Assembly (NCBI GenBank): GCA_030649205.1
Contig: JAUSGE010000020.1
Location: forward strand, 850-64,849
Source of the DNA: a bacterium
Lineage (GTDB): Bacteria > Patescibacteriota > Patescibacteriia > Patescibacteriales > GWC2-42-12
Direction: 5' to 3'
Length of the DNA stretch: 64,000 nucleotides
Program-made: the position numbers and the translations under genes
Part shown: positions 6,421 through 63,074 of the stretch, piece after piece
Position numbering within the stretch: the stretch's first letter is position 1
How the letters are laid out: each line of letters starts with the position of its first letter
Notes under the pieces: generated by a model
The model's input: only the letters and a program-made list of their open reading frames with translations
Databases searched by the model: none
What the model was told of the DNA's origin: nothing

Positions 6421-6500
6421 ATAATTTCTACCCGGCTTTAGCCGGCGTTATTTTCTTTAGATAATTTCTACCCGGCTTTAGCCGGCGTTATTTTCTTTAG
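6421..6500. repeat. Perfect 40-bp tandem duplication containing the REP-like unit TTTCTACCCGGCTTTAGCCGG
   Basis: 6421..6460 and 6461..6500 are identical (ataatttctacccggctttagccggcgttattttctttag). The second copy encodes the last codons and the stop of scpB. Confidence 0.95.
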
Positions 6501-12578: not shown

Positions 12579-12584
12579 TAGATT

Positions 12585-12658
12585 TTCTTTCTACCCGGCT
12601 TTAGCCGGAGTTAAAAAATCAATTGAAGATAACTGCCAGCTAAAGCTGGGTAGAAATT
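12585..12658. repeat. Inverted pair of REP-like units (family 6, TTTCTRCCCGGCTTYAGCCGG)
   Basis: ttctttctacccggctttagccgg ... ccagctaaagctgggtagaaa. Confidence 0.85.
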
Positions 12659-12661
12659 AGC

Positions 12662-16448: not shown

Positions 16449-16665
16449 GATTAATTCCTGAGTTTTACGAGCAGACATATGATTTTTAGGCTGAATTTGC
16501 CGTTAAAAAAATGGCATGTTTGAGGCCGAGGCTACTGCCGAGGCCGAGTTTGCCATTTTTAGGCAAATTCAGCTGTGCCGGAGGCAAAAATCATCCTGGA
16601 TGCGAGTAAATTCAGGAATTAATCCGTTCCACATATTTTAACTCCGGCTGAAGCCGGGTAGAAAA
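16449..16665. repeat. Foldback element, family 7 (GATTAATTCCTGA...TTCAGGAATTAATC) with a nested palindrome and a terminal REP-like unit
   Basis: Termini gattaattcctgag / ttcaggaattaatc. The inner ggctgaatttgcc...ggcaaattcagc palindrome is absent from the copy at 41941. It ends with aactccggctgaagccgggtagaaaat. Confidence 0.85.
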
Positions 16666-16672
16666 TATATTT

Positions 16673-17944: not shown

Positions 17945-17952
17945 AAACTATA

Positions 17953-18008
17953 TTTCTGCCCGGCTTTAGCCGGCGCTTAATTAACTCCGGCTAAAGCCGG
18001 GCAGAAAA
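17953..18008. repeat. Inverted pair of family 6 REP-like units between rplO and secY
   Basis: tttctgcccggctttagccgg cgcttaattaa ctccggctaaagccgggcagaaa. Confidence 0.9.
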
Positions 18009-18012
18009 AAAC

Positions 18013-18467: not shown

Positions 18468-18598
18468 AATTCTAAATTCTAATATCTAAATTCTAAACAA
18501 ATTATAAATTCAAATATTTAAAATTCAAAACGCATTTGTCTATAATTTCGGATTTTGGTCATTTGAATTTGTTTAGAGTTTAGGATTTCGGATTTAAA
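18468..18598. repeat. AT-rich palindromic spacer element, family 8 (TAGAAT-rich arms), directly upstream of rplO
   Basis: taaattctaaacaaatt...caaat / catttgaatttgtttaga inverted arms. A homologous copy is at 25214..25334. It overlaps the rpsE stop region. Confidence 0.8.
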
Positions 18599-19275
18599 GT
18601 TTCTTGGGTTTTTATTTCTTTCTTTGATAAATCAGTATTATTAATCTTTCTGTTTTCAGTCCTCTTCAGATTCCCCAGCGCCGCCATGGCGCATTTAACG
18701 TTATTAACTTTATTGCCAGTGCCTAGGATTTTAGAGGTTACATTTTTAATGCCGCTTAATTCCAAGAGAACCCTGACTGCTCCGCCGGCGATAATGCCGC
18801 GGCCTTTTTTAGCCGGTTTGAATAAAATTCTGGCCGCTCCCAGCTTTTGATAAATTTCATGCGGAATGGTTTCGTTGGTTATCGGGATGTCAAGAAAATT
18901 CTTTTTAGCTTTATTAACGGCCTTAGTCACGGCCGCGGTAACATCAGCGCCTTTAGCCAGGCCAATCGCCACCCGGCCTTTTTTATTGCCAATCGCCACG
19001 CAAGCCCTGAAGCGCATTCTTTTGCCTCCGGCCATCACGCGGGTAACGCGGGCGATATCAATCATTTTTTGTTCAAATTCTTCCGGCATGCCATCGCCTC
19101 GGCCTCGCCCGGCGCCTCGCTTGCCTTTAAAGTTTCTCTTTCTGTCTCCGCCTCTTTCCCCGCCGCGCTGATACGATCTGGCGTCAGGCATAGCCGGGGA
19201 AGCAGCATCAACTTTAGCTTCGGTTTTAGGAGCTATTTCAGGTTGCGTATTTTCTTGTATTTTTTCTTCTTCCAT
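18580..19275 (-). CDS. rpsE: 30S ribosomal protein S5 (with an N-terminal Arg/Gly-rich extension)
   Basis: VTRVMAGGKRMRFRACVAIGNKKGRVAIGLAKG and GIIAGGAVR motifs. Confidence 0.95.
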   Translation of the reverse strand: MEEEKIQENTQPEIAPKTEAKVDAASPAMPDARSYQRGGERGGDRKRNFKGKRGAGRGRGDGMPEEFEQKMIDIARVTRVMAGGKRMRFRACVAIGNKKGRVAIGLAKGADVTAAVTKAVNKAKKNFLDIPITNETIPHEIYQKLGAARILFKPAKKGRGIIAGGAVRVLLELSGIKNVTSKILGTGNKVNNVKCAMAALGNLKRTENRKINNTDLSKKEIKTQETLNPKS

Positions 19276-19298: not shown

Positions 19299-19483
19299 GG
19301 CTCGGCCTGGAAAAATTGTTTTTATCGCGGCTCCTCGGTGCATGCCTCGGCGCCGAAGTAGCTGAACGGGGGCGAAATTGTAGCGATTTTTTACAAAAAA
19401 TTACTTTTCTTACCTTTTAATTTTTTGTAAAAAACGCACAAATTTTCTCTTAAGCAGGAAAAACAATTTTTCCAGGCCGAGCC
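19299..19483. repeat. Long foldback element, family 9, copy 1, filling the rplR-rpsE spacer
   Basis: 25-bp perfect outer stem ggctcggcctggaaaaattgttttt/aaaaacaatttttccaggccgagcc. The core gcgaaattgtagcgattttttacaaaaaattac...ttttttgtaaaaaacgcacaaattttctcttaagcagg is shared with 62933..63074. Confidence 0.9.
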
Positions 19484-20461: not shown

Positions 20462-20505
20462 TATCAAGTTAAAATTTAATGGCCGTAGGGCTTTGCCCGC
20501 CCGTG
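20462..20505. repeat. Partial copy of the ribosomal-operon hairpin module (family 10) upstream of rplF
   Basis: tatcaagttaaaatttaatggccgtagggctttgcccgc matches the left arm of 24782, 34489 and 35030. Confidence 0.75.
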
Positions 20506-21717: not shown

Positions 21718-21753
21718 ATATATTATCTAGTTAAAATTCAATGGCCGCAGTCT

Positions 21754-22089: not shown

Positions 22090-22181
22090 ACTCTTTCTGC
22101 CCGGCTTCAGCCGGCGTTATTTTCTCTTTCTGCCCGGCTTCAGCCGGCGTTATTTAACTCTGGCTAAAGCCAGGCAGAAAT
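22090..22181. repeat. Three family 6 REP-like units (two direct, one inverted) between rplN and rplX
   Basis: ctttctgcccggcttcagccggcgttatt twice, then aactctggctaaagccaggcagaaa. Confidence 0.9.
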
Positions 22182-22187
22182 AATAAA

Positions 22188-24773: not shown

Positions 24774-24781
24774 ATTTATTA

Positions 24782-24892
24782 TATCAAGTAAAAATTTAAT
24801 GGCAGTAGGACTTTGTCCGCTATTAAATTTTTACTTGATACCTTATATTTTTTGAAAATATTAAAAACTTTTTCTAAAAAAGCTGTTAAAAG
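24782..24892. repeat. Ribosomal-operon hairpin module (family 10), full copy, directly upstream of rplV
   Basis: tatcaagtaaaaatttaat...attaaatttttacttgata stem-loop plus a second hairpin aaaacttttt-ct-aaaaaagc. Near-identical to 34489..34601 and 35030..35140. Confidence 0.9.
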
Positions 24893-24894
24893 TT

Positions 24895-25209
24895 TTATTT
24901 TTTCGCCGCCGGAACTGGAGCCGGAGCCGTGCCTTTAGCCTGCTCTTTAGCCATCTTGCCGCCGTGGCTGACAAACTTTCTAGTCGGTGAAAACTCGCCT
25001 AATTTATGGCCCACCATATTTTCCACCACAAACACCGGCAAATGCAGTTTGCCATTGTGGACACCGATGGTAAAACCTACCATTTCCGGAGTAATTGTGC
25101 AAGCCCGATCCCAAACTTTAATCACGGTTTTATCGCCCGGACGCAAATTCTTAATTTTTTTAATTAGCCTGTCGTTTACGTATGGGCCTTTTTTTAAACT
25201 TCTGGACAT
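24895..25209 (-). CDS. rpsS: 30S ribosomal protein S19
   Basis: [11 protein letters not shown] and [13 protein letters not shown]. Confidence 0.97.
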
Positions 25210-25213
25210 AATT

Positions 25214-25334
25214 TTTCTAAAATTCTAAACAAATTCTAAATTCAAATGTTCTAAACTCAAAACGCATTCGTTTGTGATTTTGGATTTTGGTCATTTGAAT
25301 TTGTTTAGGATTTAGGATTTCGTATTTAGAATTT
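25214..25334. repeat. Family 8 AT-rich palindromic spacer element, directly upstream of rpsS
   Basis: Homologous to 18468..18598, sharing the centre caaaacgcatt.gt and the right arm ggtcatttgaatttgtttag. Confidence 0.8.
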
Positions 25335-30056: not shown

Positions 30057-30467
30057 TTAAAAAGTTACGTCTTCCAAATACTGCCGGTCTTCTTCTATAA
30101 TTTCCTCGGCCAAGCTTTTTCGCTTTGGAGGAATTGACCAGCCTCGCTTGGCCTTTTTGATTATCTGGCCGATCGCTTCCGGTTTTTTATCGTCCGCTTC
30201 GTCCGCTTGAATTTTAATATTTTCAAAATTGCCTAAATTTACATCAAAATCTTGCTCACTTTTCCAAATAGCAATGTCGCGATTTATTTTATCAAGTAAC
30301 TCATCTTCTGTCAATCCCCTGACCTCGCTCTTGCCTAAAACCAAATTTTCATAGTCTTTTAGCGCCAATATCATGAAGATATTGTCCGGCTTGGAGCTGT
30401 CAAAAACAATTAGGCGATCGCCGGTTTTTTTCGCCAAATTAATCGCTTTTTGCAATTGATCCTGCAT
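30057..30467 (-). CDS. Hypothetical protein, 136 aa, inserted between fusA and tuf
   Basis: Open frame ending 22 nt before the tuf start. The N-terminal 45 aa faintly recall a Phd/YefM-type fold (LAKKTGDRLIVFDSSKPDNIFMILALKDYENL). No firm family. Confidence 0.5.
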   Translation of the reverse strand: MQDQLQKAINLAKKTGDRLIVFDSSKPDNIFMILALKDYENLVLGKSEVRGLTEDELLDKINRDIAIWKSEQDFDVNLGNFENIKIQADEADDKKPEAIGQIIKKAKRGWSIPPKRKSLAEEIIEEDRQYLEDVTF

Positions 30468-32883: not shown

Positions 32884-33756
32884 TTATCTTTTATTTATTG
32901 GCGTCTGTTCTTCCAACCCAGTTAACATTGTTTCACAATTTTGTTTTAAAATATTACTATCTTTTGTATTGAACTTTCTAATGGAATATAAACTTTTTGA
33001 ACCATCGTATAATACAGAAAATTCGCATTCATTATTATTTTTTCTCTTTTGATTTTCAGCTATCGCTATATTAGGCTCGGTAGAATATAGTTTGTTGATT
33101 ATTTCGATATTATTAAAATTTTTATTTACAAAATTTCCTCCGTCAGAAAAAAATATTTGCACTGTCGTTCCTCCGGCAAAATTATATGTATACCAATTTT
33201 TAGGATATTTAAAATTAGTCAAAACGCCAATTTTTACACCATTTTTTTCTTCATCAAATACCTGCCAATCCGCTGTCGGATCGGTAAATTTAAAAGAATC
33301 AACTAATTTATCAAATTCGTTCTCGGTAAAATAATCATTACCATTTTTATCAAATAAAAAGTCGAAACTATATAAATTTTTATTTTCTTCAGTTATACAG
33401 GTTTTCATTTTAGCACTCTCATTTATCGTCTTGGACGGCTTTAAATCACAAAACCAATTTAAACCATTATTTTTATGCGTGGTACGACGCTCGTCGGGAA
33501 ACGCTTTTGCATAATATTGAATATATTCATCTAAGCTACTGATACTTTTGTTATCTGCGCCAAGCAGAGCATAATTACCTACTATTAAAGTACCTAAATT
33601 TAATGCGGCTTCAGTATTACGACCGGCAACAACAGGAAAAAAGGATAAATTCAAATATTGCTTATACTTATTAGATGATGGTTGCTCCGCATTTAACTCT
33701 ATCTTTAATTTATCTTTATTCTTTATTTTTATACGTCTGCCAATTAGCTGTTTCAT
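32884..33756 (-). CDS. Hypothetical AT-rich protein (Asn/Lys-rich) between rpsG and fusA; probably the body of a frameshifted secreted protein
   Basis: Long open frame that is visibly more AT-rich than its flanks. The upstream signal-anchor ORF 33716..33931 is in another frame and overlaps it in an A-rich tract. Confidence 0.5.
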   Translation of the reverse strand: MKQLIGRRIKIKNKDKLKIELNAEQPSSNKYKQYLNLSFFPVVAGRNTEAALNLGTLIVGNYALLGADNKSISSLDEYIQYYAKAFPDERRTTHKNNGLNWFCDLKPSKTINESAKMKTCITEENKNLYSFDFLFDKNGNDYFTENEFDKLVDSFKFTDPTADWQVFDEEKNGVKIGVLTNFKYPKNWYTYNFAGGTTVQIFFSDGGNFVNKNFNNIEIINKLYSTEPNIAIAENQKRKNNNECEFSVLYDGSKSLYSIRKFNTKDSNILKQNCETMLTGLEEQTPINKR

Positions 33757-33931
33757 CAGCCGTGGCCAATGGATTTGAGCTTGTACTGACGCTGGTCGAC
33801 GGATTCGGACTTGTCTTTTGACTCGCTTTTTCAGCCGACTTTTGCCAAAAATAATATGAACCATAAGAAATACCGCCCAAGATTAAAATGGCGGCTAACG
33901 CAATAATGGTAATATATTGTTTTTTCGGCAT
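33716..33931 (-). CDS. Signal-anchor N-terminal segment (71 aa), likely the 5' part of the same gene as 32884..33756
   Basis: MPKKQYITIIALAAILILGGISYG is a hydrophobic anchor. It stops within ataaaaataaagaataaag, where the downstream frame is already open. Confidence 0.45.
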   Translation of the reverse strand: MPKKQYITIIALAAILILGGISYGSYYFWQKSAEKASQKTSPNPSTSVSTSSNPLATADETANWQTYKNKE

Positions 33932-34476: not shown

Positions 34477-34488
34477 ATTTCTTAATTA

Positions 34489-34601
34489 TATCAAGTAAAA
34501 ATTTAGTGGCCGTAGAGCTTTGCTCGCTATTAAATTTTTACTTGATACCTTATATTTTTTGAAAGTATTGAAAACTTTTTCTAAAAAAGTTTTTAAAGGT
34601 T
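34489..34601. repeat. Family 10 hairpin module, full copy, directly upstream of rpsG
   Basis: tatcaagtaaaaatttagtggccgtagagctttgctcgctattaaatttttacttgata plus the gaaaactttttctaaaaaagttttt hairpin. Confidence 0.9.
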
Positions 34602-34602
34602 A

Positions 34603-35022
34603 TTATTTCTTCGGAGTCTTAGCCCCGTACCTGCTCCTTGACTGTCTTCTGCCTTCCACGCCCTGGGTATCATAAACTCCTCTGATTATTTTATAGCGAA
34701 CGCCCGGCAAATCTTTGGTACGGCCGCCTTTAAGCATAACGATGGAATGCTCCTGCAGATTATGGCCGATGCCCGGAATATAGGCGGTAACTTCCATGCC
34801 GTTGGACAGGCGCACGCGCGCGATTTTTCTTAAAGCCGAGTTAGGCTTTTTCGGCGTGGTCGTCGTCACCTTTAAGCAGACGCCGCGCTTAAACGGCGCG
34901 CCTTTAGCCAGCACGGTTCTTTTGCGATGCAAAGTATCAAGAGTTGATTGCAAGGCCGGCGACTTAGTTTTATTTCTGCTTGAATGCCGGCCTTTCCTGA
35001 CCAGCTGATTTATGGTAGGCAT
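34603..35022 (-). CDS. rpsL: 30S ribosomal protein S12
   Basis: [12 protein letters not shown] and [11 protein letters not shown] motifs. Confidence 0.98.
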
Positions 35023-35029
35023 ATTAATT

Positions 35030-35140
35030 TATCAAGTTAAAATTTAATGGCCGTAGAGCTTTGCTCGCTATTAAATTTTTACTTGATACCTTATATTTTT
35101 TGAAAGTATTGAAAACTTTTTTGAAAAAGTTTTCAAGGGG
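35030..35140. repeat. Family 10 hairpin module, full copy, directly upstream of rpsL
   Basis: Near-identical to 34489..34601. Confidence 0.9.
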
Positions 35141-35226
35141 GTAAAAAAACAAACCCGAATATTCGGGATATAAATAAATTTAATTGCTTATTCTAATTTA
35201 ACACAAGAAATAAAAACGGTCAAGAG

Positions 35227-36652: not shown

Positions 36653-37540
36653 TTATTTTTTGTCGCCGTCAACGCCAATTTTCCAAACACCTTTTTCCAA
36701 AAAAGCTTCAATGGTTTGCCGATTGGCTTTATTTATAAGATTTGAATGTGAAAGTTTATTTTTCTTGCCATAGTCAGCCAGAGTAATAATTTTTTTGTTC
36801 TCCAAATAAGCCAACCGTTTATAATAACTGTTGGTAAGCGCCTTCCCCACTATTTCTTCCATAATAGCAGTTAAGCCTTTTTTATCGAATTCATTGAAAG
36901 CTTCATAATATTTTTTTCTGTCAATAAATTTAATGTTCATCGGCACAAAGCCCTCTCGGATCAATATATAATTATTGATAACGCGCCCAATGCGGCCATT
37001 GCCATCGCAAAATGGATGAGTATATTCAAAAGTGAGATGCAATTTTGCTATGCGCTTGATGATATTTTCATGGCTGGCGGCGTTATACTCGGCTAACATT
37101 TTTTCAAGACGACCCACCACCTCTTTTGGATTAGGGGCGATATGGCTGCCGACGCGGACGAATTCGTTGTCCTTTCTAAACCGCCCGGCGATATCATCGC
37201 GGATATTTGAAATCAACATACTGTGAAGCGATAAAATCACGGGAAGCGTAAGCTCTTGTTCCTTGGCTCTTTTATCTATATAAGATACAACTCGTGCTAA
37301 ATTTTTAGCTTCAAAAATTTCTCGTTCGGTAATATATCTGTCCAAATCAATTTGCAAAAGTATTTTTTCTGTTTCTTCAAGCGTAAGCGTGCTATTTTCA
37401 ATAGCGTTTGAATTATATACTTGCTCGGCAACTTCAGTTTCAGCGATCAGCGAAATAAGCGCCTCCTTGCCAATAGACGCTTTATAGTATCGCTCGCGAA
37501 GAAAATTTATTTTGTTGTAAACATTAAGTATTTTTGCCAT
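36653..37540 (-). CDS. Fic/DOC family protein (putative AMPylase)
   Basis: Canonical Fic motif HPFCDGNGRIGR. Confidence 0.9.
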   Translation of the reverse strand: MAKILNVYNKINFLRERYYKASIGKEALISLIAETEVAEQVYNSNAIENSTLTLEETEKILLQIDLDRYITEREIFEAKNLARVVSYIDKRAKEQELTLPVILSLHSMLISNIRDDIAGRFRKDNEFVRVGSHIAPNPKEVVGRLEKMLAEYNAASHENIIKRIAKLHLTFEYTHPFCDGNGRIGRVINNYILIREGFVPMNIKFIDRKKYYEAFNEFDKKGLTAIMEEIVGKALTNSYYKRLAYLENKKIITLADYGKKNKLSHSNLINKANRQTIEAFLEKGVWKIGVDGDKK

Positions 37541-41541: not shown

Positions 41542-41680
41542 CCGGAACGAAAAAGTTTGTTTTGAGCGCATACGAAATTGTAGTAATTTTTTTTAAAATT
41601 ATTCAAGTCTTCTTGTTTGAATAATTTTAAAAAAAATACACAAATTTCGTCTAAGTGAAAAACAAGCTTTTTCGTTCCGG
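41542..41680. repeat. Long foldback element, family 9, copy 2
   Basis: Outer stem ccggaacgaaaaag/ctttttcgttccgg. The core gagcgcatacgaaattgtagtaatttt...aaaattattcaagtctt...ttgaataatttt...acacaaatttcgtctaag is near-identical to 51956..52097. Confidence 0.9.
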
Positions 41681-41940: not shown

Positions 41941-42069
41941 AGGATTAATTCCTGAATTTACCAACAAACATATGATTTTTAGCCGAAAGGCAAAAATCAT
42001 CCTGGATGCGAGTAAGTTCAGGAGTTAATCCATTCCGCATATTTTAACTCCGGCTAAAGCCGGGCAGAA
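41941..42069. repeat. Foldback element, family 7, short copy, with a terminal REP-like unit
   Basis: ggattaattcctgaattt...ttcaggagttaatcc, then attccgcatattttaactccggctaaagccgggcagaaaa. Homologous to 16449..16665. Confidence 0.9.
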
Positions 42070-42095
42070 AATAATAAAAAATAATTCATCCAATC

Positions 42096-51955: not shown

Positions 51956-52097
51956 GGCCGCGATAAAAAGCTTACTTTGAGCGCATACGAAATTGTAATA
52001 ATTTTTCTTAAAATTATTCAAGTCTTCCTTTTTGAATAATTTTAAGAAAAATACACAGATTTCGTCCTAAGCGAAAAATAAGCTTTTTATCGCGGCC
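51956..52097. repeat. Long foldback element, family 9, copy 3
   Basis: 19-bp perfect outer stem ggccgcgataaaaagctta/taagctttttatcgcggcc. The core is near-identical to 41542..41680 and in the same orientation. Confidence 0.9.
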
Positions 52098-62932: not shown

Positions 62933-63074
62933 CACGGCTTCTTGCGAATTATTTTATCGCGCATAGAAAATTGTAGCAATTTTTTACAAAAAATTACTTT
63001 TTTTACCTTTTAATTTTTTGTAAAAAATGCACAAATTTTCTCTTAAGCAGGAAAATAATTCGCAAGAAGCCGTG
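62933..63074. repeat. Long foldback element, family 9, copy 4, between htrA and prfB
   Basis: 23-bp perfect outer stem cacggcttcttgcgaattatttt/aaaataattcgcaagaagccgtg, with a core shared with 19299..19483. Confidence 0.9.

Follow-up and report, generated by a model that had tools for sequence, protein, structure and literature searches.

A polar, structured interspersed repeat placed just before start codons in a clade of Patescibacteria

The genomes of Patescibacteria (Candidate Phyla Radiation, CPR) measure about 1 Mb and are regarded as streamlined and poor in repeats, and to our knowledge almost nothing is known of how transcription is organised in these bacteria, how their mRNA decays or how they translate genes without a Shine-Dalgarno (SD) sequence. 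Here, we analysed a stretch of 64,000 nt from a bacterium of this phylum (contig JAUSGE010000020.1, positions 850 to 64,849; hereafter, the window), in which a structured repeat of about 115 nt, referred to as the module, lies inside the most conserved operon of bacteria, polar and only bases away from start codons. We find that the module forms two hairpins that are real and under selection, that it belongs to a family restricted to a Falkowbacteria-like clade of Patescibacteria, and that this family is a polar interspersed repeat that is probably mobile. We estimate a probability of roughly 0.5 that the module is a mobile-type repeat that is transcribed as part of operon mRNAs and acts there as an intercistronic RNA structure.

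A two-hairpin module before start codons

The minus strand of the window between 16.6 and 35.1 kb carries the str/S10/spc ribosomal operon in the order rpsL, rpsG, an unknown open reading frame (ORF) of 326 aa, fusA, an unknown ORF of 136 aa, tuf, rpsJ through rplO, and secY; as usual in Patescibacteria, the rpsE-rplO interval lacks an L30 gene. The 25-mer GGTATCAAGTAAAAATTTAATAGCG, located at the 5' arm of the long stem of the module, occurs exactly three times, always on the minus strand (24818-24842, 34525-34549 and 35066-35090), while none is expected by chance (100 shuffles). The 3' arm, TTAAATTTTTACTTGATA, was detected with at most three mismatches on the minus strand at 24782, 34489, 35030, 20462 and 21724, and its mirror was detected on the plus strand at the three full copies, giving a total of eight matches versus 0.46 expected. 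Moreover, a repeat search, nhmmer and a covariance model agree on three full copies and also recover the partial copy upstream of rplF, with nothing else convincing in the 64 kb. Thus, the three full and two partial copies listed in a preliminary description of this DNA were recovered at the same coordinates, and none would be expected by chance. The copies and their parts are as follows.

24779-24898, minus strand: full copy between the rpsS stop codon (24895) and the rplV ATG (24773), scoring 120.2 bits with the covariance model
24889-24861, minus strand: hairpin 1 of the rplV copy
24860-24841, minus strand: A-rich linker with TATAA box of the rplV copy
24840-24782, minus strand: hairpin 2 of the rplV copy, with the tip stem-loop at 24818-24808
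34486-34605, minus strand: full copy between the rpsL stop codon (34603) and the rpsG ATG (34476), scoring 127 bits
34596-34568, 34567-34548 and 34547-34489, minus strand: hairpin 1, linker and hairpin 2 of the rpsG copy
35027-35145, minus strand: full copy within the 5' leader of rpsL, 7 nt away from the ATG of this gene (35022), scoring 125 bits
about 35136-35109, 35108-35089 and 35088-35030, minus strand: hairpin 1, linker and hairpin 2 of the rpsL copy
20462-20505, minus strand: deletion remnant before rplF (ATG 20446), reduced to the 3' arm of hairpin 2 with the tip hairpin
21724-21752, minus strand: more decayed remnant of the 3' arm before rplE (ATG 21717), with three mismatches and no predicted fold

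In the rplF remnant, the 5' arm and everything upstream of it are lost, and the rpsH stop codon (20507) abuts what is left. Measured from the GATA of the module, the gap to the ATG is 8 nt for rplV, 12 nt for rpsG, 7 nt for rpsL, 15 nt for rplF and 6 nt for rplE; the position just upstream of the start codon had been described correctly, and the range of 6 to 14 nt given for it becomes 6 to 15 nt.

The full copies are predicted to fold into an A/U hairpin followed by a 19-bp stem with a 4-bp GC tip, with folding energies of -27.7 to -34.3 kcal/mol and z scores of -4.4 to -7.2 relative to shuffled sequences. The 19-bp stem is an internal inverted repeat that occupies columns 59-77 and 99-117 of the alignment. 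In an alignment of 25 sequences, 98% of the cells are paired and 9 of the 38 pairs show compensatory double changes; none of 500 shuffles reached the observed pairing values, and when the partners were slid by one to three columns, pairing fell to 37-60% (33-60% over both alignments). With 86 distinct sequences, 26 pairs show double changes, although the values for hairpin 1 in this larger alignment lean on the model because GC hairpins nested in some copies are aligned into hairpin 1. The long stem covaries at three to ten positions and three of the four tip pairs covary, with GAGC/GCUC, GGGC/GCCC, GGAC/GUCC, GAGU/ACUC and GGAU/AUCC as tip variants. The two-hairpin fold proposed earlier is therefore borne out by both folding energies and compensatory substitutions, the stem being 19 bp here, and we conclude that the structure is real and under selection.

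We next consider how the family is distributed. A scan of species-representative genomes for the 19-mer of the stem gave many pairs of matches 40 nt apart in about 12 metagenome-assembled genomes (MAGs), and single matches in unrelated A/T-rich genomes that are of the kind expected by chance. By their labels, most of these MAGs are Patescibacteria, one is Candidatus Falkowbacteria and three are Gammaproteobacteria. The latter three, the "uncultured Gammaproteobacteria" MAGs CAYSKV (loci L006, L013, L027, L052, L089, L098 and L109), CAZGKM (L016, L036, L053 and L066) and CAZHZE (L010, L069 and L100), carry the module together with a Patescibacteria-type ribosomal operon whose proteins are 65-95% identical to those of the window, and their label looks wrong. 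A scan of metagenomes added 50 further contigs, and none of the viral contigs scanned carried the module; no viral or plasmid-like carrier was found. The covariance model search suggested in the preliminary description was carried out on 611 kb of sequence from the clade, with 25 gap-free copies as the basis of the model; it yielded 95 matches, which correspond to 87 distinct copies.

The great majority of these copies are oriented as the genes around them. In 80 of the 84 scorable copies, a co-directional ORF starts within 130 nt of the 3' end of the module (binomial P ~1e-19), and in 73 it starts within 40 nt. The four exceptions face a gene on the opposite strand or a convergent junction; of the remaining copies, two run off a contig end and one has no called gene. 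The ATG follows CTTGAT, close to the 3' end of the module, at a median distance of 11 nt, with 8-9 nt as the mode. On the other side, a co-directional gene ends within 60 nt of the module 5' end in 65 of 79 copies; only 0-6 nt separate the 5' edge from the stop codon upstream, and in a few cases the TTTAAA of the module itself provides the stop. For instance, in JAQVNC (L046:3127-3246) the rpsC stop codon is the TAA inside the module sequence CTTTAAAAAC. The module can also supply coding sequence: at L115:3036-3154, a gene on the opposite strand reads about seven codons into the 3' arm and then stops. Thus, the fixed placement before start codons and the co-orientation with genes noted in the window hold over 87 copies.

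Among the genes found downstream are 16 ribosomal protein genes (rplF, rpsK, rplX, rpsG, rpsE, rplB, rplY, rplV, rplR, rpsL, rplC, rpsS, rpsH, rplP, rplE and rpmJ) and about 20 non-ribosomal families, including tuf, rpoB, ssb, ThrRS, atpA, atpF, an atpI-like gene, a SecDF-PPIase fusion, MurB, MraY, FemAB, a PilT-like ATPase, an HtrA-like protease, a class-V aminotransferase, PduL, epimerases and hypothetical proteins. Ribosomal protein genes follow about half of the copies and make up, by our own estimate, about 5-7% of genes. The association with ribosomal protein genes that was apparent in the window is consequently an excess, and exclusivity does not hold, as shown by tuf, rpoB, the atp genes and others; the module is specific to neither one operon nor one regulatory ribosomal protein.

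The module is also conserved far above the neutral level. At the rplF junction in nine genomes, the L6 protein is 70% identical and four-fold degenerate sites, which are saturated, are 39% identical, whereas the mean identity of the module is 84%; it reaches 94% between genomes with 62% L6 identity. Variable columns are few (N57, Y41, the hairpin-1 loop and the covarying pairs), and the linker TTTCAAAAAATATAA-N-GT and the hairpin-2 loop CUACGGCC are nearly invariant. The strict polarity, the proximity to start codons in a lineage that hardly uses SD sequences and the conservation above that of adjacent proteins are the features that deserve to be followed up.

Gain, loss and probable mobility of the module

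Comparing eight related genomes junction by junction, we observed that the same junction is filled in some genomes and empty in others. The rplW-rplB junction holds a module and is 119 nt long in CAZHZE and JAQVNC, whereas in the window and JAUSEG it has none and is 41 and 76 nt long, respectively; rplB-rpsS is 127 nt with a module in CAZHZE, but 22 and 11 nt in JAUSEG and JAQVNC. At rpsC-rplP, a module (109 nt) is present in JAQVNC only, and at rplF-rplR (148 nt) in CAYSKV only, this junction being 1-28 nt elsewhere. The rpsL-rpsG junction is filled in the window and by an orthologous copy in CAZHZE, while JBAZFW has only a 29-nt remnant of hairpin 1; the rpsL leader lacks a module in both CAZHZE and JBAZFW. 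By contrast, full copies occupy the rplF junction in CAZHZE, JBAZFW, JAQUPG and several metagenome contigs, where the window has a remnant. Of the other remnants, some have hairpin 1 and the TATAA box but no hairpin 2 (CAZHZE rpsS-rplV and rpsC-rplP) and some the 3' arm only (rplF in JAUSEG, and rplF and rplE in the window).

Identical 110-nt cores are found at three non-orthologous junctions, those of CAZHZE rpsG, CAZHZE rpsS and JBAZFW rplC, while four-fold degenerate sites of tuf, fusA and rpsG are 56-63% identical between CAZHZE and JBAZFW. In addition, about ten copies contain CCCC-N-GGGG mini-hairpins nested at three fixed internal sites. These mini-hairpins are about 18-22 nt long (CCCC-N3-6-GGGG followed by ATAAA) and are present at L098:3959-4098, L041:1799-1936, L028:3896-4031, L099:637-774, L089:6664-6817 and L067:4233-4349; two further copies have larger GC hairpins in the hairpin-2 loop (L093:3616-3778 and L053, about 1414-1538). 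The nested hairpins look like a separate family of mini-insertions. A further small insertion is seen next to a module at L128:3900-4015, with the same sequence in L163 and L121: downstream of the module, the first 21 nt of rplX (ATGAAGATTAAAAAAGGTGAC) are present twice with a GC-rich hairpin in between, which looks like an insertion that duplicated its target at the start codon.

The preliminary description had held that the module does not look like a random repeat insertion. The presence/absence polymorphism, the nested insertions and the identical copies at non-orthologous sites contradict this, and the same junctions being empty (1-30 nt) or occupied by remnants in sister genomes shows that they do not require the module. 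Relatives that lack the module and keep normal SD sequences had been named as an observation that would tell against a role there; relatives do lack the module at these junctions, but they lack SD sequences as well. Altogether, the module is best read as a polar interspersed repeat that is probably mobile.

Several observations bear on how copies arise and persist. The copy with the highest score (L070) lies as an orphan behind rnc, where two genes converge, and L115 contains an intact antisense copy. Paralogues within a genome have an identity of 0.896 versus 0.902 for copies in different genomes, i.e. there is no homogenisation. Copies at the same junction are slightly more alike, at 0.945 (n = 3) and, in a larger set, 0.918 versus 0.905, a difference that 119 of 2000 permutations reach; as an orthology signal, this does not separate vertical retention from repeated insertion. 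The module has no terminal inverted repeats, its 5' end (nCTTTRAAAAC) and 3' end (ACTTGAT) not being inverted copies of each other. TAA is frequent on both flanks, at variable offsets and in an A/T-rich background, and the empty and filled sites fit duplication of TA, of TAA or no duplication. In the 5' flank, AA is present at -5/-4 in 73-76% of copies, a bias that is confounded with TAA stop codons. A tblastn search for a Y1/RAYT transposase with IS200 TnpA and YafM as queries, a weak test that covered the window and the locus fragments, gave nothing with E <0.1. Among these sequences there is also no locus of an autonomous IS element that has the ends of the module.

Two sources of the polarity are possible, selection or strand-specific insertion. 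Selection could act because in 84 of 86 copies the antisense strand presents an AUG with A/U surroundings, whereas the sense strand has an AUG only when N57 is T, or because an outward promoter would be harmful in antisense. Since 93% of the junctions in these genomes are co-directional, the data fit either source, and counts at divergent, operon-head junctions have no statistical power to show a depletion of the module there.

Of the known bacterial intergenic repeats, Correia elements, ERIC, MIRU, the pneumococcal BOX/RUP/SPRITE repeats and REPINs come nearest to the module in function and appearance. Correia repeat-enclosed elements (CREE/NEMIS) of Neisseria are intergenic, about 100-150 nt long and co-transcribed, with a hairpin that is bound or cut by RNase III, and they have 26-bp terminal inverted repeats, a TA duplication and both orientations (PMC2649163; review PMC2229807). 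The module is similar in being a multi-copy intergenic repeat with a long hairpin, possible promoters at its junctions and a presence/absence that differs among relatives; it differs in that its long inverted repeat is internal, in the 3' half, and preceded by a second, unrelated hairpin, that it is 95% polar and that its sequence is unrelated. As in classical miniature inverted-repeat transposable elements, it is short, non-coding, multi-copy and polymorphic for insertion, but it lacks terminal inverted repeats, whereas it shares with IS200/IS605-derived palindrome-associated elements subterminal hairpins, the absence of terminal inverted repeats and polarity (80/84). The ERIC/IRU elements of enterobacteria, imperfect palindromes about 127 nt long, lie between genes in regions that are transcribed, and as whole elements they are more conserved across genera than non-coding DNA would be expected to be; they have longer variants that arose by insertions at fixed internal sites, are found in either orientation and are not tied to start codons. 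Whole-element conservation and fixed internal insertion sites, here those of the nested GC hairpins, are shared with the module, which by contrast is polar, linked to start codons, from another phylum and unrelated in sequence. Mycobacterial MIRU are tandem direct repeats of 46-101 bp with small ORFs for translational coupling. Like them, the module is intercistronic, oriented with the operon and abuts the upstream stop and the downstream start; unlike them, it is present as a single copy per site, forms hairpins and has a sense ATG only if N57 is T.

The general class of ERIC-type elements has been reviewed (PMC2229807). The BOX, RUP and SPRITE repeats of pneumococci (PMC3049150) and the REP/REPIN elements, which have RAYT transposases (PMC8049555), are, like the module, short, structured, multi-copy intergenic repeats of small or compact genomes, often transcribed, modular and subject to decay by deletion. 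They differ from it in being for the most part restricted to one species or genus and in having no polarity relative to genes. REPINs are in addition accompanied by a RAYT gene that can be recognised; we saw no RAYT gene alongside the module, in a weak search. Putative mobile promoters are highly similar upstream sequences found before many non-homologous genes (PMC3488235, PMC3575422). The module is likewise found before non-homologous genes within and between genomes, but it matches the -35/-10 consensus of its lineage poorly and promoter activity is only putative. The RNase III hairpins of the early mRNA of phage T7 and the REP-type 3' stabilisers of Escherichia coli are strong stem-loops between cistrons at single, locus-specific sites. 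They offer a functional analogy for the way the module may work, the module being a dispersed family. In the Patescibacteria/CPR literature on SD sequences, intergenic repeats and promoters, we found no such element described. We conclude that the module is a small structured interspersed repeat of bacterial intergenic regions that belongs to none of the families compared here.

Possible roles of the module

In the reading that we favour, the module would have spread by copy-and-paste into the gap of a few bases that separates a stop codon or leader from the following start codon, and copies would persist almost only in the orientation of the surrounding genes. Most copies lie in junctions that are 1-30 nt in sister genomes, which leaves no room for a separate promoter; we therefore infer that the module is read through in the operon mRNA, in which it would fold into a weak A/U hairpin and a strong 19+6-bp hairpin whose foot is about 8-13 nt before the AUG. 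This structure may mark a processing or stability point, i.e. an RNase III-type cut or a block to exonucleases, so that the fates of the neighbouring cistrons would be uncoupled. Moreover, by pairing with itself the module would leave the AU-rich, SD-less start region downstream open, and it could for this reason be tolerated even inside the S10/spc operon. The shape of an RNase III substrate is present in the predicted 19+6-bp stem, which is backed by covariation, and an rnc gene is present in the clade (L070). The computed accessibility of the start region (-10 to +13) is 0.595 with the native module versus 0.512 with a shuffled one, with the native module ahead in 49 of 56 copies (P = 1e-8). 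An intrinsic terminator scan called neither hairpin; hairpin 2 is followed by an A-rich sequence, and hairpin 1 is A/U with one G-C pair.

Several points weigh against this reading. Read-through, cleavage and stabilisation are predictions from the DNA, and mobility is read from the pattern of copies, with no terminal inverted repeats, clear target duplication or transposase seen. G-U pairs outnumber A-C pairs only weakly (10 versus 7), leaving the sense RNA unproven as the strand that folds, and the start region is more accessible without any upstream sequence (0.731) than with the module (0.595). With 93% of junctions co-directional, polarity with respect to genes is also inseparable from polarity with respect to replication. 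Finally, plain structure does not explain why the unpaired TTTCAAAAAATATAA-N-GT and the loop CUACGGCC are near-invariant across saturated divergence; these segments point to a protein that reads the sequence itself, be it RNA polymerase, a nuclease, a regulator or a transposase. If the module does have a role at the RNA level, it provides an entry to post-transcriptional control in an uncultivated phylum, and it could find use as a portable component of the genetic tools now under development for these bacteria.

Recognition by RNA polymerase would make the module a portable promoter cassette, an alternative that we regard as rather unlikely. Here, the A-tract and TATAA-N-GT would serve as the -10 (TAAnGT with a free N at -9), with UP-like help from hairpin 1; transcription would start in the 5' arm of hairpin 2 and give a protective 5'-terminal stem-loop, a short AU leader and the AUG, and within operons the copies would act as internal promoters, raising the output of genes with high expression. 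The near-invariance of TTTCAAAAAATATAA-N-GTATC with a free N (C 25, T 23, G 22, A 6) fits a TAnnnT hexamer, read as TAAnGT or TATAAN, and the strict polarity, the enrichment before ribosomal protein, tuf, rpoB and ATP synthase genes, and a conservation across genomes far above that of the other repeat families in the window are as expected of such a cassette. However, the module has no -35 better than 4/6 and no TGn, while clear promoters of the lineage read TTGACA-17/18-TATAAT or TTGACC-17-TAAATT; a promoter scan flagged only the junction specific to rplV (CTGCCA-16-TATAAT). Moreover, the nested hairpins split the would-be -35 from the -10 in about ten copies, junctions of 1-30 nt suffice for expression of the same genes in sister genomes, and intact orphan and antisense copies exist. 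Hairpin 1, although upstream of the putative start, has compensatory changes, and must therefore either be transcribed from further upstream or have its importance as DNA.

A hairpin with a T-run precedes several copies (window rpsL, rpoB at L090, rplC at L093 and rpmJ at L016/L137), which would also suit a promoter. This argument from a terminator followed by a module was set aside: the rpsL promoter is kept upstream of its leader hairpin in module-free genomes, and rplC in the window starts 16 nt after a hairpin of the same kind with no module. Likewise rejected was a leaderless promoter at the 3' junction (TGATATAAT), as ATAAT follows CTTGAT in only about one in ten copies and the spacing to the ATG, 3-4 nt for rpsL and rplV, is too short; genome-wide, -10-like hexamers show only a small excess 6 nt before ATGs. 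The TATAAT noted earlier at the rplV and rpsG junctions is present, but it is a property of the flank, seen in about one copy in ten, and not a feature of the family.

It is unlikely, in our view, that the module is a purely selfish DNA element, in which the hairpins would be single-stranded DNA structures recognised by a transposase supplied in trans, much as for palindrome-associated elements derived from IS200/IS605. The polarity would then come from strand-specific insertion at an asymmetric A-rich/TAA target or at the replication fork, and any effects on expression would be incidental. Two different subterminal hairpins without terminal inverted repeats or a clear target duplication, the AA bias at -5/-4, often part of a TAA stop, and the presence/absence polymorphism with its decay remnants and identical copies at non-orthologous sites all fit such an element. 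So do the orphan state of the most consensus-like copy, the intact antisense copy, the lack of homogenisation of paralogues within genomes and the several other hairpin-repeat families in neighbouring junctions of the same operon. By contrast, the whole 110 nt, and not the ends alone, are conserved above the adjacent protein despite saturated synonymous sites, the rplF junction is occupied in at least nine diverged genomes, and the other repeat families in the window are not conserved in this way; neither a viral or plasmid-like carrier nor, in the weak test described above on partial genomes, a Y1/RAYT transposase was found. If the module were selfish only, the tight stop-start junctions of essential operons would be permissive landing sites in SD-less genomes.

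A more far-reaching extension of the reading as an RNA structure, and a doubtful one, is that the module is a clade-wide, mobile cis-regulatory RNA cassette that a dedicated trans-acting nuclease or regulator reads through the invariant loop and linker, and that by hopping before start codons places genes under a common post-transcriptional programme. If so, the programme would split operon mRNAs into separately stable and separately translated units in bacteria without SD-led initiation, and it would explain a repeat that is more conserved than the neighbouring ribosomal protein.

We consider it very unlikely that loop and linker are the site of a single trans-acting regulator of growth-related genes for the ribosome, RNA polymerase, ATP synthase and envelope, i.e. 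a shared regulon operator. The extreme conservation of these unpaired segments, the fixed position relative to the AUG and a downstream set made up mainly of translation, transcription, energy and envelope genes are consistent with it; however, the set of genes bearing a module differs among genomes, core ribosomal protein junctions included, modules also precede hypothetical and epimerase genes, some copies are orphan or antisense and no candidate regulator was identified.

Lastly, the idea put forward in the preliminary description, a translational operator or enhancer specific to ribosomal proteins that replaces the SD sequence, is highly improbable: it accounts for all five copies in the window preceding SD-less ribosomal protein genes, but SD sequences are rare throughout and absent from module-free ribosomal protein genes too, about half of the copies precede non-ribosomal genes, and the same ribosomal protein junctions are empty in sister genomes. 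Rfam gave no match to a ribosomal protein leader, with four tRNAs as the only matches in the window above the gathering score, and at a relaxed threshold no match over the modules had E <0.3.

SD usage was determined in 330 called genes from the window and related loci. An SD core of 4 nt at -18 to -4 is present in 17 of them (5%); in the window, one gene caller gives 6 of 64 genes and a second flags 9 of 71, most of the sites being at 38.6-51.9 kb. Position -1 is T in 76% of the 330 genes, and module-free ribosomal protein genes likewise have an A/T-rich upstream region ending in T-ATG and no SD. It had been stated that most accessory genes in the window carry strong AGGAGG sites, which these counts show to be wrong, and that module-bearing genes lack an SD, which is correct, although the contrast with other genes disappears because SD sequences are scarce in the whole lineage. 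The ribosomal protein genes in question are thus not unusual in missing an SD, and because the lineage hardly uses SD sequences, the module is not a substitute for one. We conclude that the module is neither an SD substitute nor a ribosomal-protein operator.

The few genes with a strong AGGAGG-type SD in this otherwise SD-poor genome (38593-39633, 39661-39876, 41000-41236, 44635-46701, 47918-49603, 49616-51892 and also 320-649) comprise a DAHP synthase gene, a PrkA-SpoVR-PrkA set and small ORFs. This cluster may be of foreign origin or form a special expression class.

Other repeats and signals in the window

At least three other families of hairpin repeats occur in expanded junctions of the window, several of which belong to the same ribosomal operon (rplB-rpsS, rpsE-rplO, rplR-rpsE, rplN-rplX and rplO-secY). 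They are barely detectable in related genomes. These repeats and a conserved element upstream of rpsL are as follows.

25220-25334 and 18488-18602: 115-nt family
19375-19462, 41575-41662, 51991-52077 and 62968-63055: 88-nt family
CCCGGCTTTAGCCGGG units: further hairpin-repeat family of neighbouring junctions
17949-18011, 22090-22184, 6421-6500, 12584-12660, 16638-16668 and 42044-42074: further hairpin-repeat sites
35223-35195, minus strand: promoter-like TTGACC-17-TAAATT of rpsL, followed at 35167-35144 by a leader hairpin with a U-run, both upstream of the insertion point of the module

The rpsL promoter and leader hairpin are conserved in the window, CAZHZE and JBAZFW. The TTGACC-17-TAAATT is preceded by TG and directly follows the stop codon of an M50-peptidase-like gene, and the region 35144-35223 may serve rpsL as a leader or attenuator and not simply as a terminator.

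The two unknown ORFs of the operon, at 32884-33864 (326 aa, between rpsG and fusA) and 30057-30467 (136 aa, between fusA and tuf), have no Pfam match. The 136-aa ORF, about 65% identical in two sister genomes, comes with a perfect TTGACA-18-TATAAT of its own (30528-30499). Two minus-strand genes, starting at 37540 and 16352, have a canonical -10 located 8 nt before the ATG; one of them, a Fic-domain gene, reads TTGACA-17-TATAAT-8-ATG and the other TATAAT-8-ATG, which suggests leaderless or near-leaderless transcripts for some genes. Finally, L001 (Logan SRR13727527, 960 nt), the only public contig with the exact L22 protein of the window, begins inside a module (model position 49), where the repeat probably broke the short-read assembly.

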